This document shows, piece after piece, positions 3,001-32,167 of a DNA stretch of 64,000 bases (position 1 is its first letter; every line of letters begins with the position of its first letter). The notes under the pieces were generated by a model. That model had not been told where the DNA came from. It did no database searches and saw only the letters and a list, made by a program, of their open reading frames with translations. The DNA comes from a virus (Duplodnaviria > Caudoviricetes), in IMG/VR virus record IMGVR_UViG_3300031134_000001, positions 32,001 to 96,000 of that record. One strand, written 5' to 3'. A program made the position numbers and the translations under genes.

Positions 3001-4199
3001 TTGGCGATCTGTGGGACGTTTGAACCGAAGTGTTGCAGACGGTTACCCGTACGACGCAAGGCTTTGGCTTTGTTGCCATTGTCGCCCATGATCTTCTTGC
3101 CGACTTTACTAGCGGCCAGACCACCCAACCATTTTGCAGCCACACCACCGACGGCGTTACCACCCATGCGGTAGCGATCCATCCCCATGTCTTCTGCCAT
3201 GTTGACGGTGTCGCCTGCCATCTCCATACCACTGATACCATCACGCACACCACCAGCGAATTTGCTGATGCTGCCAATGGCTTGCTCACGGAATGCTTTG
3301 CCCAAGTTCTGCATGAACTCAGTGCGAGCGCCGAAGACGGTATCCTGAATACCGCCCATGACCTTGTTACGCAACATGTCCTTGAACTTCTCGGACGCGG
3401 TCATCTTGATGAGATCAGGCAGCGAAGTGTTGTGCAAGATCCCCGAGAGCATCTCGGTGTTGCGTACGTTCTGACGACGGGTCTCGTTTAACGTATCGAC
3501 TGCCACGTAGTAGTGACGGGCTTGCAGTTCGAGCGACTTCTTGTGGAAGTTAAACTCGATCCGGCGTTGGTACGCAGCCATCGACACCACACTGCGACGG
3601 ATACCGTCGAGCTGGGCCAAGTTATCGTTATGTCGGTTGTTGCCAACCACATCACGGATCGTCTCACGCGCATCAGACTTGGCTTCTTGCCGAGCACCTT
3701 CTTTGGCGTTGTACTGGAACGTATCTGACAGCATGGCGGCAACAGCCATATCGTTCGCTGCATTGGCCCCGATACCGACCTGTGGTTGATCGCGATACTT
3801 GTCCGCGAAACCTTTGAGTACTTTCTCTGCAGATTTCGGCAGATACTTGCTACTCGACGGCATCATTTTGTCGATCATGCGACCGACATCTTTGAACATC
3901 GGTTTGGCCTCTTTTTGGCCTTCATTGTATAGCTCACGGACGGACGTTGCCGATTGATCAGCTAAATCAACCATGTCGCCGAACCCGCGTGGTAATGCTT
4001 TCTTCACGAATTCACGGAAGAACGACCCACTCTTTACTGTGTCCTTGGCGCCTTCCCATGCGCCAGCGCCGACACGTTCGACGGCTTCGCGTTTATTCTT
4101 AGGCGGTTTAACTTCCATACTGAATTCTTCAAAGTCAAATTCATTACCGAAGTCATATTCGTCAAGATTGAGGCGTTCTGTGTTTGATTTACTCGCCAT
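1..4199 (-). CDS. Tape measure / tail-associated protein, phiKZ gp181-like; N-terminal ~1400 aa, runs off the left edge
   Basis: ATG at 4199 gives MASKSNTERLNLDEYDFGNEFDFEEF. The frame reads sensibly at the window edge (DSDGDGDRDGSYEDQ); I spot-checked it rather than translating it fully. It is divergent from the vRNAP beta' gene, as in phiKZ gp181/gp180. The C-terminal lytic domain is not visible. Confidence 0.75.
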   Translation of the reverse strand, partial: MASKSNTERLNLDEYDFGNEFDFEEFSMEVKPPKNKREAVERVGAGAWEGAKDTVKSGSFFREFVKKALPRGFGDMVDLADQSATSVRELYNEGQKEAKPMFKDVGRMIDKMMPSSSKYLPKSAEKVLKGFADKYRDQPQVGIGANAANDMAVAAMLSDTFQYNAKEGARQEAKSDARETIRDVVGNNRHNDNLAQLDGIRRSVVSMAAYQRRIEFNFHKKSLELQARHYYVAVDTLNETRRQNVRNTEMLSGILHNTSLPDLIKMTASEKFKDMLRNKVMGGIQDTVFGARTEFMQNLGKAFREQAIGSISKFAGGVRDGISGMEMAGDTVNMAEDMGMDRYRMGGNAVGGVAAKWLGGLAASKVGKKIMGDNGNKAKALRRTGNRLQHFGSNVPQIANDWSNQYTDAEQSTKDFLDNSRMPDGLKSFLSKVAGVAGNPLIDLFKGTIRRANATDTQVKEKGVADLYAPTQFSNQAHKTIVEVIPGLLARIVQEQQIARTGDTSVDLIQYDYSRGAFSSTKAVRKSVFNKLFDENSRKGVKREQESLMEMVDPAGVLNPQQRAELTKLLMKDNLRGRAGYETGRISNYQNASNFNESANGEKFAELFRALNEKNKASEFSLNNQFASRFSDVGRSAGSRKKEIQQLLEVYPRDMLEDMGLIKPGSTQIDMEKVYSYFDGEQYNANGAPGIGGVRRTPQVWRGGNRGTPPQLPRPPAANDTANGSTMVDELQKLIAVIELQNSKPLVSDIKDILTAMQADLANMGGASGPSAFDRAIDGASDLASSAARNARRLKRQALVSGGRLKQQHQDQIDEAKRRAQELSAEAKRRAKRLQRQALVQGGRLRQQYQPQIDGAQEFLTDQQRRAQEAWDGRPSMNELGGMLRNRWDQVRGSAERAQDYVNSDEFRENLRQRRSQAGQMFTDLSGRARSTAGNIHDRIQQATEQMRQRNESRGLDGEEHKGTLGEIKTILESIRDRLEDGIITTGGVPDGIVRKTKRAVNNGAMRLVDVVKGSAIFAARSVGFGARMIGNTARFGGKAVNTVVGGTARFGWGAIKGTAGLAADGIGLVGGSQYRRARGFVDIYVGNERKPRLYGRMLQEGNVYFDKETGKPIRRLKDIRGDVVRKTAAGEETVLEAAEIEQAWQKVGPVKKSLNALGAVASGAYGLGKGLLGVVTKGIPPVFKMAFSVGKKVWGLLDLAKDVFVKDRLDSPVMTARLMRAGVYYSAASGKVIKSPGKIDGPVLIGDGPNVETVLTHDDLRKGLVDKNGNPIRSGIGKLFNFAMSGIRTAGKLAWKAGKLVNDAGTSLIKNGYALGKKGVSAAVNLAGGSMDVLRGRNPFRQGPSAEITKKAVELQTEQVSYLKEIRDVLMDRLPKRKVRSTLDSDGDGDRDGSYEDQ

Positions 4200-4275
4200 A
4201 ACGTCTTACTCCTAATTAGTATACTCGCCTCGTATCTCTTGAGGCTTCATAGTTTTAGCGCACTAAGGACTTAGC

Positions 4276-5895
4276 ATGCAAAAATCAATGCTGCCTTTCA
4301 ATGTATCGATTTTACATTTGACCCCCCCTAAGCTGGCGGGACTGGCACAAATTACGTCGTTGTCGATGTATGAAGGCATCACGAACAACTTCCACCCAGA
4401 TGGACTGTTCTCTACCAAAATCTTTGGCCGTGTGGGCGATGATGTCCGCGCGCGGCGTTATGCCTACATCGATATCAAAGTAGCGGTGTTCCATCCGATC
4501 ATCTACAACACGCTGGTCTCACTCAAGCGGTTGTATGGTGGCATCATGTCGGGTCACGAATACGCAGTGTGGAATCCCGAGAAGAAAGACTTCGACCGCT
4601 CGGACGCCATGGATGGTGAGACTGGTTACCATTTCTTTATGACGTATTGGGAACAGATCGACTTTGCCAAAACGTCTAGCGACAAACGCGACATCGCGAT
4701 TCGCTTAATCGAGAAATACAAGAAGCAAGCCTTAACCAGTAAGATCATCGTGATCCCTGCGGGCCTGCGTGATGTGGAAATCGGCGGGGATGGTCGGCCA
4801 CGTGAAGATGAGATCAATCCCATCTACCGCGAACTGTTAAGTACGGCCAACACCTTGTCCGACATCGCGATTCGCTCCACACCAGAACTGATCGACCGAG
4901 CCCGTTTCAAACTGCAAACCACGTTCGTTAAGATCTATGACCTGATCGAGCGTTTGATTTACGGTAAGAACAAACTGATTCAAGGTAAGTGGGCTAGCCG
5001 GCGCATTATGAACGGCACTGGTAACGTCATCACGGCCCTGCCGGTGGAAACCCAGTACCTGGGCGCAGCAGGCGCAGCAGGCTTTAACGACACGGCTATC
5101 GGCCTGTTCCAACTGATCAAAGGCTTGCTGCCGATCGCGCTGTACCAACTCAAGCATGGTTGGTTGCGTCAAGTCTTCCCAGACTACAGCTTGCCCGTTA
5201 ATCTGGTGAACAAGAAAACGTTGAAGGCCGAACCCGTATCGCTCAAGACCGAGTACTACGATCGCTTCCAAACCAATGAAGGGTTGGAGAAAGTCGTCAA
5301 CGCCTTCCGCGAAGAATCGCTACGCGACCAGCCGATGGAACTGGAAGGTCGTTACATGGGCCTGATTTATAAGGGACCAGACAACACCTTCAAGATCTTC
5401 AACGACATCGATGAGTTGCCTGCCAACCGTAGCCGCGCGCACGTCTATCCGCTCACGTTCTGTGAGCTGGTCTATTTGTCCGGTTATCGCATGTGGAATA
5501 AATATCCAGCGACAGTGACCCGTTACCCAGTGACCGGTGTGGGTTCGATTTACCCAACCAGTCTGTATGTGCGCACCACCACGGTGGCTGAGTGCCGCAA
5601 AGAACTGGGTCGTAACTGGGAACCGCTGGACGACTCCCACACTGCCTACGAGTTCCCGGTGCCTGGTCCGTACATGAAGTCGATGTCGCCACACCCAACC
5701 CGTCTGGCCAAACTGGACGCCGACTTCGACGGCGATATGATGAACTGCAACATCGTGTACTCCGATGAAGCGGTCGAAGAAGTCAACAACTATTTTGGTA
5801 AACGCCGAGCGTATGTCGGTACCAACGGTCAATTCATTTCCAGCACCGCGGTGCATACAGCAAAACTGGTGTTTCATAACCTCACAGGGGATTAG
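4276..5895 (+). CDS. Virion RNA polymerase beta' subunit, catalytic middle part (phiKZ gp180-like)
   Basis: RLAKLDADFDGD catalytic motif, GKWASRRI and RYPV (beta' motifs), 539 aa, synteny. Confidence 0.92.
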   Translation: MQKSMLPFNVSILHLTPPKLAGLAQITSLSMYEGITNNFHPDGLFSTKIFGRVGDDVRARRYAYIDIKVAVFHPIIYNTLVSLKRLYGGIMSGHEYAVWNPEKKDFDRSDAMDGETGYHFFMTYWEQIDFAKTSSDKRDIAIRLIEKYKKQALTSKIIVIPAGLRDVEIGGDGRPREDEINPIYRELLSTANTLSDIAIRSTPELIDRARFKLQTTFVKIYDLIERLIYGKNKLIQGKWASRRIMNGTGNVITALPVETQYLGAAGAAGFNDTAIGLFQLIKGLLPIALYQLKHGWLRQVFPDYSLPVNLVNKKTLKAEPVSLKTEYYDRFQTNEGLEKVVNAFREESLRDQPMELEGRYMGLIYKGPDNTFKIFNDIDELPANRSRAHVYPLTFCELVYLSGYRMWNKYPATVTRYPVTGVGSIYPTSLYVRTTTVAECRKELGRNWEPLDDSHTAYEFPVPGPYMKSMSPHPTRLAKLDADFDGDMMNCNIVYSDEAVEEVNNYFGKRRAYVGTNGQFISSTAVHTAKLVFHNLTGD

Positions 5896-13617: not shown

Positions 13618-13640
13618 ATCGTTTTAACGCTATATCACTT
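13618..13640 (+). promoter_or_regulatory. Early (vRNAP-type) promoter
   Basis: TTTTAACGC-TATATCAC-T (core 13631-13638). It matches five other copies in the window and the phiKZ early consensus TATATTAC. Confidence 0.75.
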
Positions 13641-13739
13641 TACTGTAATTAGTTGTCAATATGCAATCTAACGATATAAAAATAGCTGGTATCCACCTGC
13701 TATAGAGCCGAACCACCTCTTAACCAAAAGGAAAACGAA

Positions 13740-14243
13740 TTGGGCACTCCTATCAATCCACAGTGGGAACACGTGTTGCTGACCTTCAAAGGCAACGAAC
13801 ACAAATTCTCCGGCGTGGTTGCGCAAGCGACCAAAGACACCATCGACGTTGACATCGAACTGATCGACTTGGTTGCCTCTGCCAAGGAAGTTGCTCACGT
13901 TTCGAATGTGATCGATGTCGAAGACCTCGAAATCGTCACGCCAATCTTTTACAAGCACGAAGGCAAGTTCATCGTGCTGGCCGGTGCTGACAAAGTCATC
14001 GCCACCAAACAAGCAGCAAAGCCCAAAGCCGATGGTTCGCCGATCACGGTCAAGGGTCGCATGCTGTCTTCGGTTGCACTCAAAGGCGTTCGCGTCTTGA
14101 AAGCGCAACCACCCGCAGAGCAAGTACGTCCAGCGACACCGTTCAATCCACCGCGACTGAACACGCCGCATCGCGCTGGCGCCTACAACAGCGACAGCCA
14201 ACCCCGTACCTACGCCGGCAAACCAACGCCACGTAAGTACTGA
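13740..14243 (+). CDS. Hypothetical early protein
   Basis: TTG start after AAAGGA SD; 167 aa with a Pro-rich tail; only a weak ParB/Srx-like look (PIFYKHEGKFIVLAG). Confidence 0.7.
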   Translation: MGTPINPQWEHVLLTFKGNEHKFSGVVAQATKDTIDVDIELIDLVASAKEVAHVSNVIDVEDLEIVTPIFYKHEGKFIVLAGADKVIATKQAAKPKADGSPITVKGRMLSSVALKGVRVLKAQPPAEQVRPATPFNPPRLNTPHRAGAYNSDSQPRTYAGKPTPRKY

Positions 14244-14286
14244 TTCATTTCACCCGTAGTACATACCACCAAAAAAGGAAAACAGC

Positions 14287-14793
14287 ATGAGCACCGAAAA
14301 GATCGCAGAAGTCAAACTGAATCCGGCCGTCGAAGAAATGAAGGGCAAGATCTACGAAGCCATCACCGTGTCGAACACCGGTGACGTCGAAAAGACCGAG
14401 AACATCTACGAGAGCACCCTGCCCGACGACATCACGATCGACATGGTCAAGCGCGTCAACACGCACAACGAACTGTTCATCGCTGCCGCCTACGACGCCA
14501 TCGGTGACGCTGCTCGCGCCGCGGCCCTGGAACACGAAGGCATCAAGCAAGTCAACGCAACCATCGGCATGACCGGCCGCAACACCCTGCACGTGCAGTG
14601 GGACCGCGCCGTCGAACGCAACGCCGGCATCGCCGAAAAAGGCAAGGTCGCCCCGAAGAAAACCGTGTACGGCGCCATGTCCGGCAAACTGACCGTCGCC
14701 GGCACCGACACCGGCTCGGGCGAGCTGGGCAAAGTCGCACGTCGCCAAAAGCAAGCAGCACAAGACATGTTCGCGCCGGCCGTCACGGCCTAA
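14287..14793 (+). CDS. Hypothetical protein, probably highly expressed
   Basis: AAAGGA SD, extreme C/G-ending codon bias, 168 aa. Confidence 0.85.
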   Translation: MSTEKIAEVKLNPAVEEMKGKIYEAITVSNTGDVEKTENIYESTLPDDITIDMVKRVNTHNELFIAAAYDAIGDAARAAALEHEGIKQVNATIGMTGRNTLHVQWDRAVERNAGIAEKGKVAPKKTVYGAMSGKLTVAGTDTGSGELGKVARRQKQAAQDMFAPAVTA

Positions 14794-14801
14794 GCAGCAT
14801 C

Positions 14802-15200
14802 GACCTGGTAGTCCCTTGTAATGCATGAAAGCTCACCAGGCACACCCATGCGTTACAAGGAGGTCAAAAAGAAATCTACTGATGTCGACGTTTGCTCACA
14901 CCGGCGACTAGGTAGTCCTGCTCTGACACACCGCGGTAGTTATTCTCTCGCAATCCAACGCGAAGGTTATAAGTTACAATCTATCGCCAAGTGTGTTACG
15001 ACAGGATCGAGACTAGGACAGACCTAGTGCTCGGAGCACCGCAAATTCTTGAAACATTCCTCTTAGCTCTTAGCGGGGCAAACGGGGCGCATTGGTCCCC
15101 ATCGAGAATCTGTGGTGTTAGTAGTTCCATGACGGTGAGGCGTCATGGTTGTGGATAGCCGCACTGCCCTTCGGGGTGGTGCGGTTATTTATGACGTCTT
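14802..15200 (+). ncRNA. Candidate structured non-coding RNA
   Basis: No credible ORF; 14-bp stem 14814-14827/14847-14860 with a G-U pair; pseudoknot-compatible pairing; further nested helices; ends in a UUCG hairpin. Strand inferred. Confidence 0.45.
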
Positions 15201-15210
15201 TATTTTTTTG
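15156..15210 (+). terminator. UUCG-capped terminator with TATGACGTC
   Basis: TAGCCGCACTGCCC-TTCG-GGGTGGTGCGGTTA, then TATGACGTC and a T tract. Confidence 0.75.
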
Positions 15211-15322
15211 TTTGTTTCTAGGTGTATTGCCCCTAAGCCTCACCACGGCGTTTGTTTTTGCTCCACTCAAGAATCTACCGCGCAGTAGAAAGAATCGCTC
15301 CTAGAGGCTATACGTAGGTCCT

Positions 15323-15376
15323 GACGGCATAATACCCCCATCCATCTCCACAGCGGGGATGGATGGGATGTATGAC
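15323..15376 (-). terminator. Terminator of the tail tube transcript
   Basis: CCCATCCATCTCC/GGGGATGGATGGG stem just past the tube stop, with GACGGCATA (reverse of TATGCCGTC) at 15323. Confidence 0.65.
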
Positions 15377-15381
15377 TTCAA

Positions 15382-16272
15382 TTAGAAGTTGGTCTGACGC
15401 TGCGAGACAGCTTTGATGGAAGCATCGAAACCAGTTTCGACTGCCGATGCGACGTCTGCGCTGATCTTGTCGACCATGGCTTGTTTCATCATCGGGTTTG
15501 CACCCACGTAGTTCACGGCGTTCAGGATACGCTGCGCGAACGCATCGACGCCGGCGCCGACTTGTTGCAGAGCGGTGAACGACAGATCGACCGTGACGGT
15601 TTGCATGTCCTGGGTCTTGTCAGCCGAACCGACGATATCGCCGGTGCCTTCAGGGAACATGTTAAAGCACAGGAACGCTTGCTGGACTTTACGACCGAAT
15701 GCATCCGGTTCGATGTACAGCACGGTCATTGTGGTCTGGTCAGCCAGCAGGTCGGGCGACGCGCCGCCGGCAAATGCTGCTTGGAAGCTTGGCAGGGTAG
15801 CGACCGATGCGAACTTGGTGTCCGGGTCCATACCAGCGTAGAGCATCCAGGTTTCGATCAGGCGTTGGATCGGACGACCGTAACGCTCGATGTACGAGTG
15901 CTTGGGCATCGATTCAGCGCGCTTGATGTTCACCAGGTCGCGTTGCATTTGACCGGAACCACCGAATGCGTTTTGTGCGAATTCAGCGGTCAGGCCGCGG
16001 TTCAGACCGTCGATCGACAGCCACTGCGTCTCGATCAGAGCGCGCAGAACCTTGACGAACTTGTCGCCGTTGGGGAAGTACTGGAACAGCTTCGGAGCCT
16101 GGATCAGGATCGGGATGAGGTGACGACGTACGTGAGCTTGGTTGTTGACAAACGCAGCGTGGTCTGGAGCCCAGCCCATCTGACCGCCATAGGTCAGGTC
16201 GACCATGGGTGCGTTCGCACCCAGACCGAAGGCTGTGCCCGGTTGCATGATAGCACCATTGACGCGGGACAT
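15382..16272 (-). CDS. Tail tube protein (phiKZ gp30-like)
   Basis: 296 aa, directly downstream of the sheath gene, strong codon bias. Confidence 0.85.
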   Translation of the reverse strand: MSRVNGAIMQPGTAFGLGANAPMVDLTYGGQMGWAPDHAAFVNNQAHVRRHLIPILIQAPKLFQYFPNGDKFVKVLRALIETQWLSIDGLNRGLTAEFAQNAFGGSGQMQRDLVNIKRAESMPKHSYIERYGRPIQRLIETWMLYAGMDPDTKFASVATLPSFQAAFAGGASPDLLADQTTMTVLYIEPDAFGRKVQQAFLCFNMFPEGTGDIVGSADKTQDMQTVTVDLSFTALQQVGAGVDAFAQRILNAVNYVGANPMMKQAMVDKISADVASAVETGFDASIKAVSQRQTNF

Positions 16273-31837: not shown

Positions 31838-32167
31838 ATGAAAATCGTAGATCTTGCCACATTTTTGGCCTATCCGGACGGTGTGGTATTTGCCGAGTAC
31901 GACCCTTGCATCATTGGGGAAATTGAAGTGCGTGGCGATGTCTGGATGTATGACAAACTAAGTAACTGCTGCTATCAGCGTTTTTCGCTGTTTGGTGCAG
32001 ATAACCCACCTTGCGGCCTGGGCACCGAAGGCGAGCTCGAAACCGACGTCTATTCTCGTACGGGGCCTGGGCTTAATGAAAAACAACTTTTCGCTGTCTT
32101 CGACAAGAAGGACATCAGCGTGATGATCAACCGTCTTCAGCGAGCATTGGACGAAGCAAAGGAGTAA
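31838..32167 (+). CDS. Hypothetical phage protein
   Basis: 109 aa, coupled to its neighbours. Confidence 0.75.
   Translation: MKIVDLATFLAYPDGVVFAEYDPCIIGEIEVRGDVWMYDKLSNCCYQRFSLFGADNPPCGLGTEGELETDVYSRTGPGLNEKQLFAVFDKKDISVMINRLQRALDEAKE

Follow-up and report, generated by a model that had tools for sequence, protein, structure and literature searches.

A modular structured RNA at the end of an apparently early transcription unit in a clade of phiKZ-like jumbo phages

Background

The tRNA cluster of bacteriophage T4 yields two stable RNAs, C and D (species 1 and 2), which are co-transcribed with tRNAs and whose function is unknown; the cluster also contains the GIY-YIG gene segB. To our knowledge, what is known of RNA in nucleus-forming jumbo phages comes solely from short candidates derived from UTRs of phiKZ and 201phi2-1. 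The phiKZ candidates, derived from 5'UTRs and 3'UTRs, were obtained by ONT-cappable-seq and Grad-seq; most 3'UTRs of this phage are shorter than 100 nt, and its conserved terminator motif, BCCYCCCCHWWDGGGRRGGBYTTATKYYGT, has been mapped experimentally at 61 terminators (PMC10914365). [quoted passage not shown] Early promoters of phiKZ consist of an extended -10 box and an upstream T-rich tract (PMC8244752), and its late start motif is TATG (PMC4666361). GOLLD and ROOL are large ornate RNAs found in phages and prophages, and GOLLD combines a variable 5' region with linker-embedded tRNAs (bioRxiv 10.1101/2024.12.08.627333).

The locus described here was analysed in a window of 64,000 nucleotides (positions 32,001 to 96,000 of the IMG/VR record IMGVR_UViG_3300031134_000001), to which all coordinates refer unless stated otherwise. 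The virus record is 271 kb long and has direct terminal repeats, and its tail sheath, tail tube, S80 prohead protease and other genes group the phage with the phiKZ-like jumbo phages, though all cultured phages are distant (tail tube identity at most 44%). The longest gene-free stretch of this genome (14794-15381) separates a small gene of an apparently early unit from the convergent tail tube gene. We find that the approximately 400 bases behind the small gene encode a real, selected and heavily folded RNA. Same-clade contigs reached via tail tube homologues served as relatives for comparison.

Results and discussion

Genomic setting and transcription unit

Two small genes on the + strand of the ORF list precede the stretch, encoding proteins of 167 aa (13740-14243) and 168 aa (14287-14793). 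The 168-aa protein matches phrog_9746 (function unknown) and has no match in Pfam. Its AlphaFold model (pLDDT 88) resembles, by Foldseek, uncharacterised proteins of many phiKZ-like phages with E-values down to 2e-10, including those of Eowyn, PhiEaH1, KTN4, Psa21, Noxifer and Phabio, and finds no match in the PDB at E <= 0.001. The protein falls in a family that is widespread in jumbo phages and uncharacterised. A likeness of the predicted fold to ssRNA-phage coat proteins came from weak rows with TM of 0.14-0.19 and is not meaningful, and a pilin-like fold was discarded since the VIA-align matches (Z at most 5.7) are unspecific. From the Pfam, Foldseek/PDB and VIA-align results on the predicted structure there is thus no hint that this protein might bind the RNA encoded behind it. 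The ordinary tRNAs of the phage are located away from this locus: a + strand cluster of eight or more tRNA or tRNA-like genes with T arms lies at genome positions 190900-192400 (window coordinates of about 158900-160400, beyond the window).

An exact match to the decamer CTATATCACT is found 11 times in the 271-kb genome, only ever on the + strand and each time behind an A/T-rich tract in a gap ahead of + strand genes; the sites are 13630, 29839, 54476 and 63190 of the window and seven more in the genome. The copy at 13630-13639 directly follows the terminator of the protease gene and heads the unit of the 167-aa and 168-aa genes. The same decamer heads the homologous unit in L001, L002, L049, L051-L053 and L062, that is, in every relative whose locus reaches that far. 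Based on its likeness to the phiKZ motif, we regard CTATATCACT as a candidate early (virion RNA polymerase) promoter of the phage clade. A preliminary description of this DNA had placed the stretch behind an 'early island', and the early-type promoter motif at the head of the two-gene unit agrees with that placement. The gene-free stretches of the relatives contain no CTATATCACT, the interval 14794-15150 contains neither CTATATCACT nor a phiKZ-type late TATG start motif, and a terminator scan of 13630-15148 detected no + strand terminator. As there is no internal promoter motif, the stretch is read as the 3' tail of the transcript of the 168-aa gene. Judged by motif, it therefore resembles the 3'UTR-derived phage ncRNAs in having no start of its own and in being co-transcribed.

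The terminator scan places a phiKZ-type intrinsic terminator at 15148-15217 (+ strand, z -9.3), consisting of a hairpin (15148-15196) with a UUCG loop (15170-15173), the sequence TTATGACGTC (15189-15198) and a T-run (15199-15217). The phiKZ type is defined by a G+C-rich stem-loop followed by TTATKYYGT, and here the hairpin is followed by TTATGACGT (15189-15197), as in phiKZ; the opposite tail tube gene ends likewise (TTATGCCGT). In comparison with the phiKZ terminators, however, the stem is unusually long (22 bp), and the class accounts for only the last 50-70 nt of the stretch. Hairpins followed by TTATG(A/C)CGTC recur genome-wide on both strands (more than 15 other hairpins), and besides these terminator hairpins the stretch has no paralogues in the genome. 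The terminator at 15148-15217 makes 14794-15200 part of a predicted + strand transcript that ends there. The terminator of the convergent tail tube gene (15321-15368; hairpin 15337-15368 followed by ATTATGCCGTCA) lies on the - strand, and hence antisense read-through into the stretch is not expected.

The spacer between the convergent terminators (15214-15320) contains a small hairpin followed by GTTTGTTT, AAGAATCTAC and CGCTCCTAG, in that order, and these blocks are conserved even in distant relatives, including those without similarity to the middle RNA domain described below. We also note that in L062 and L063 a 404-nt insertion splits the terminator motif precisely at the junction of TATG and ACGTC (window 15193/15194; located at L062:3892-4883 and L063:3892-4883, - strand). 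This moron-like cassette carries a small gene in + sense, called as 111-136 aa and with weak matches to phrog_4910 and phrog_7801, and brings a phiKZ-type terminator of its own.

Fold of the stretch and searches for known families

A folding energy no better than that of dinucleotide shuffles had been set beforehand as a possible refutation of a structured RNA. The + strand of 14794-15215 folds clearly better than its shuffles, with an MFE of -168 kcal/mol as against -128 +/- 6.4 kcal/mol (z -6.2, 0/100 shuffles as good), and the - strand reaches z -3.1 in the shuffle test. Folded singly, the sub-domains give z-scores ranging from -3.9 to -9.3, and only the linker at 14867-14911 is unstructured. 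The helices listed in the preliminary description were all recovered at their stated coordinates, namely TCCTG (14916-14920) with CAGGA (15002-15006), TGACACAC (14924-14931) with GTGTGTTA (14991-14998), the hairpins ACTAGG/CCTAGT and GTGCT/AGCAC, the hairpin CCATGACG/CGTCATGG and the UUCG-capped terminator hairpin. The G-U pairs in conserved helices, the T-run and the sense of the tRNA-like genes of the relatives, which is the same as that of the RNA, are evidence for the + strand.

Rfam 15 gave 0 matches at the gathering score over the whole window and, for 14700-15450 at E <= 10, only three chance-level matches of 12-16 bits; searches of 10 related loci together with the window at gathering and permissive thresholds found nothing for the window. 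The families covered include tRNA, tmRNA, RNase P, SRP, 6S, GOLLD, ROOL, ribozymes and riboswitches. ARAGORN identified no tRNA or tmRNA in the window or the relatives, and blastn of the stretch against cultured phages had no match. The earlier remark that hallmarks of tRNA, tmRNA, RNase P and SRP are missing is borne out by the Rfam and ARAGORN results. As far as sequence and covariance-model searches can tell, the stretch apart from its 3' terminator matches no described RNA family.

Conserved modules of the RNA

Module A is a long hairpin (14802-14865, + strand, z -4.2) that begins 9 nt past the stop codon of the 168-aa gene, with a predicted 14-bp stem (14814-14827/14847-14860) and the invariant nonamer ACCAGGCAC (14835-14843) in its apical loop. 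A long tiered hairpin starts a few bases after the stop codon in 8/8 close relatives, and the loop is identical in all of them, with surrounding stems that differ in sequence. For the first 8 pairs of the stem, counted outward from the loop, 92% of the cells are canonical as against 28-44% in shifted registers, and positions 4-8 show 3-5 pair types each among the aligned relatives. The change A14855G in L062 converts a U-A pair of this stem to U-G. The preliminary description had further mentioned a pseudoknot. The pairing proposed for this loop (CCTGGT/ACCAGG) is possible in the window, L001 and L047; the other relatives give no support, and in most of them its 5' partner pairs into an outer stem instead. 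As the loop is invariant, the pseudoknot is beyond the support of covariation. A reading of loop A as a sigma-54 promoter was judged a chance likeness, the spacing being off by one, and the matches listed from a scan of IMG/VR with the loop-A motif were unspecific and were excluded from the analysis. Module A is followed by an A-rich, unstructured linker (14866-14911; z +0.25 for 14867-14911), in which AAAAAGAAATC forms a conserved block among the relatives (alignment A3).

Module B (15036-15119, + strand, z -3.9) has a covarying closing helix, P1 (15041-15051/15103-15113), and an inner GGGG/CCCC hairpin, P2 (15084-15087/15097-15100), which is GGGG/CCYC in relatives. Its invariant single strands are GAAACAUUCC and UUGGUCCYCAUC; GAAACAUUCC and UGGUCCYCAUC are kept in 7 sequences. 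In an alignment of 6 relatives (A2), 10 of the 11 pairs of P1 vary on both sides, 92% of the cells pair, a share that falls to 46-55% once the partner strand is moved by 1-3 columns, and the covariation score is reached by 0/500 shuffles. Nine G-U cells in B would be A-C mismatches on the opposite strand, which argues for the + strand. Searched with a covariance model of B (R1), each genome that has the module shows a single copy, invariably at this locus; neither the close relatives L047 and L049 nor more distant relatives nor bacterial genomes gave a B. Scanning IMG/VR with the B motif retrieved only two known relatives and chance coding matches, and among 185,579 species genomes there were 9 matches as against about 17 expected by chance (an estimate). 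These 9 are chance matches, because R1 scores them at 13-18 bits in comparison with 68-80 bits for true members and none has P1. A likeness of the strands of B to the HDV or hairpin ribozyme was likewise judged to be chance, as their order is wrong and Rfam gives no match.

Module C is the hairpin CCATGACG/CGTCATGG (15127-15148, + strand, z -3.9). The base of its stem, CCATGNN/NNCATGG, is kept in L001, L050 and L055, where the hairpin shows two compensatory swaps (A-U to U-A and C-G to U-A) and apical insertions of 30-40 nt. Over the modules as a whole, the covariation evidence comes from 8 homologues, of which two are near-identical.

Middle domain and selection at the strain level

The middle domain (14912-15034, + strand) is lineage-specific and consists of a nested long hairpin (14915-15007), which includes the nested helices noted in the preliminary description, and a further hairpin (15008-15033), with z -4.9 for 14912-15008 and z -4.5 for 15008-15034. 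This domain is similar only to the 97%-identical strains L062 and L063 and to no other relative, and the middle 200 nt of the stretch are confined to this strain lineage; the domain can therefore be tested by population data only. Between the window and L062, 8 of 406 RNA positions have changed (2.0%), as against 106 of 1537 third codon positions in the five flanking genes (6.9%), a 3.5-fold lower divergence in the RNA (binomial p 5e-6). Six of the eight changes fall in the first 322 nt and all of these are compatible with the predicted fold. Five of them are substitutions in the middle domain, three being in one hairpin loop, one a G-U to G-C change and one in a bulge. The other two (15116 and 15118), together with a one-base deletion, are at the outer base of domain B and were left out of the fold scoring; in the outer extension helix of B, one of them improves a pair and the other disrupts one. 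The low divergence and the fold-compatible changes show purifying selection that respects the fold across the stretch, its lineage-specific part included.

Related loci and the variable slot

All relatives with a tail tube identity of 53-83% keep 525-1321 nt without a conserved gene between the homologue of the 168-aa gene and the tube gene, and a long gene-free stretch is kept at the same spot in eight related phage contigs. Those of L001 and L002 also fold beyond their shuffles (z -8.8 and z -4.2). Similarity to the window is limited to four blocks, viz., A with the linker, B, C with the terminator, and the spacer behind the terminator. The Burkholderia phage FLC9 has only 73 nt after its tail tube gene, which suggests that the slot is clade-specific.

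The relatives contain further elements in the slot. Another hairpin is common to L001 and L055, and an extra module, CUUGGUYGGGG...CCUGUGAGUCGCUGUYGCGAC, is present at about positions 130-200 of the gene-free stretches of L002, L047, L049, L050 and L054. This extra module has covarying small hairpins, contains UUGGU like B, and is absent from the window and L001. The tRNA-like genes of L047 and L055 have acceptor, D and T arms with GGTTCGAATCC. These genes (L047:5071-5237(-) and L055:6638-6806(-)) and that of L001 (L001:6046-6177(-)) carry an insert of 75-100 bases that separates the D arm from the anticodon arm. We also note a tRNA-Sec-like element with the loop CUGCAAA in L047 (5249-5349(-)) and L002 (approximately 5267-5379(-)). 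ARAGORN misses all tRNA-like elements of the relatives, and their Rfam scores are 36.4 bits for L001 (tRNA) and about 25 bits for the others (tRNA-Sec model, gathering score 47). A cassette of Hcp, Rap1a (immunity) and Tae4 (T6SS amidase effector) lies between the RNA terminator and the tail tube gene in L047 (3589-4930), in L055/L056 (4103-6168) and in the contig of P0008; an I-TevI-like GIY-YIG gene is present in L055/L056, and L051 has a GIY-YIG gene at 4124-4519.

The preliminary description had taken the stretch for a structured ncRNA of about 400 nt. That it is non-coding, on the + strand, strongly structured, ended by a terminator and under selection for its structure is upheld. Its being a single discrete unit is not, as the internal promoter motif is absent, only about half of the stretch (A, B, C and the terminator) is conserved beyond the strain level, two close relatives, L047 and L049, lack module B, and modules are shuffled among the relatives. 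The stretch behaves as an array of independent RNA modules and not as one fixed 400-nt fold. This mosaicism of the locus argues against one integrated fold and for a slot of independently folding RNA units in one early transcript.

Proposed role of the RNA and alternative explanations

Based on these observations, we hypothesize that in this phiKZ-like phage of the nucleus-forming type the stretch forms a long, structured and non-coding 3' tail to an early unit, and that it is cut off the mRNA to give one or more stable trans-acting RNAs, a proposal to which we assign about an even chance. The virion RNA polymerase would start at the putative CTATATCACT promoter (13630), read the 167-aa and 168-aa genes, continue through the following 400 nt or so, which present no stop signal, and end at the phiKZ-type terminator. 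The tail would then fold as independent modules, that is, A, the lineage-specific middle domain, B and C. With its invariant 9-nt loop ACCAGGCAC displayed behind the stop codon, hairpin A looks like a sequence-specific docking site, and domain B may form a helix-closed pocket with invariant single strands. Cleavage near hairpin A or in the A-rich linker, as with the 3'UTR-derived RNAs of PAK_P3 (PMC10914365), would release one or more stable RNAs that act in trans early in infection, perhaps with the unvarying loop of hairpin A and single strands of B as contacts for a host or phage factor. We infer that synthesis is early and that the tail is processed and acts in trans, as well as whatever partner it may bind; the promoter is assigned from its motif. 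The same slot in relatives would deliver other stable RNAs, including tRNA-like ones. The absence of B from L047 and L049 and the lineage-unique middle 200 nt imply that no single module except A is indispensable.

The main rival of this proposal is a purely cis-acting 3'UTR, in which the hairpins protect the early mRNA from 3' exonucleases and insulate it from the convergent tail tube gene, with no RNA acting in trans; we consider this possible, though on the unlikely side. The missing internal promoter motif and the position between convergent genes that each have their own terminator would suit such a 3'UTR, and so would the gain and loss of modules among relatives, which is expected if any stable hairpin suffices. 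Generic protection, however, needs no invariant sequences, and the loop ACCAGGCAC in 8/8 relatives and the strands GAAACAUUCC and UGGUCCYCAUC in 7 sequences are kept over a wide divergence; these single strands, as conserved sequences, appear to speak against it. It also sits uneasily with the length of most phiKZ 3'UTRs, below 100 nt (PMC10914365), and with the 22-bp terminator hairpin, which alone would already be protective. We regard as improbable an integrated large 'ornate' RNA of the GOLLD/ROOL kind, with a conserved 5' element and a 3' domain around a variable, tRNA-capable linker, that folds or multimerises as a whole. Its layout would correspond to A, a variable linker and B/C, and the tRNA-like genes in the linker of L047 and L055 have parallels in GOLLD (bioRxiv 10.1101/2024.12.08.627333). 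Against it, there is no Rfam match to GOLLD, ROOL or another family, the supported helices are all local with no conserved long-range pairing found, L047 and L049 are without the 3' domain B, and the RNA, at about 400 nt, is shorter than GOLLD and ROOL.

A further alternative denies the RNA any function. Remnants of decayed genes, or scars of mobile elements in an insertion hotspot, might fold by chance; the hotspot is apparent in the Hcp-Rap1a-Tae4, GIY-YIG and 404-nt small-gene cassettes of relatives, and the middle domain has no homologue beyond the strain level. Such leftovers are nevertheless hard to reconcile with the compensatory changes in A, B and C, with a divergence 3.5-fold below that of third codon positions and with sub-domains that fold far beyond their shuffles. 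This reading is already disfavoured and, in our estimate, quite improbable. The preliminary description saw no credible ORF, and we concur, the short ORFs having neither start signals nor conservation. The longest frame, of 68 aa (14821-15027), starts with ATG and is intact in strain L062, but it has no Shine-Dalgarno sequence or other ribosome-binding site, no PHROG matches it, the 14-bp stem of module A buries its start codon, and it is absent from L001 and all other relatives, in whose records gene callers annotated no gene in the stretch. We therefore rejected it as a gene, and consider it very improbable indeed that this or another short ORF encodes a small protein.

Returning to the proposal of a processed 3' tail, the locus presents a 400-nt RNA that closes what appears to be an early operon and whose structure is clearly under selection, and the invariant single strands in two of its modules look like binding sites. 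In this one genomic slot, relatives interchange homing endonucleases and T6SS-type cassettes as well as RNA modules and tRNA-like genes. Should the RNA act in trans, it would contribute to host takeover or counter-defence early and independently of protein; should its action be confined to cis, the 3'UTR would still be unusually elaborate. In either case, this RNA family can be searched for and tested with the covariance model and the homologous loci listed. A bolder version, which we offer as speculation with little chance of being right, is that the tail belongs to a novel class of host-takeover factors in one jumbo-phage clade, modular, made of RNA only and active early, in which a fixed 5' docking hairpin (the ACCAGGCAC loop) is combined with swap-in RNA cassettes, such as the tRNA-like genes with 75-100-nt inserts in relatives, and in which B and module M1 of the relatives might hold tRNA 3'-CCA ends or another host RNA via their invariant UUGGU strands in the first minutes of infection.

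Comparison with known systems

The stable RNAs C and D of phage T4 share with this locus the association with a GIY-YIG gene, which is likewise present at the tail-RNA locus in L051 and L055. The window, however, has no tRNA or tRNA-like element and no sequence relation to these RNAs; tRNA genes or tRNA-like ends in the same transcript, as in T4, are absent from the stretch in the window and occur only in the relatives L001, L047 and L055. In layout, the tail RNA is closest to GOLLD and ROOL, with which it has in common a large phage RNA composed of a conserved and a variable part, and tRNAs by or in the variable linker (here only in L047 and L055). It differs from them in having no covariance-model match, in being shorter and in its conserved 3' domain, which is missing in some close relatives; with homologues too few for long-range pairs, only the local helices of A, B (P1 and P2) and C are supported. 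In kind, the tail RNA is closest to the UTR-derived ncRNAs of phages (PMC10914365, PMC11512511). The RNAs of phiKZ, PAK_P3 and 201phi2-1 have been seen as transcripts of 70-210 nt, whereas that of the window is predicted from sequence, is about 400 nt long and modular, and has no sequence or Rfam relation to them. Like them, it is phage-encoded and structured, and its 3' end is at a terminator composed of a hairpin and TTAT.
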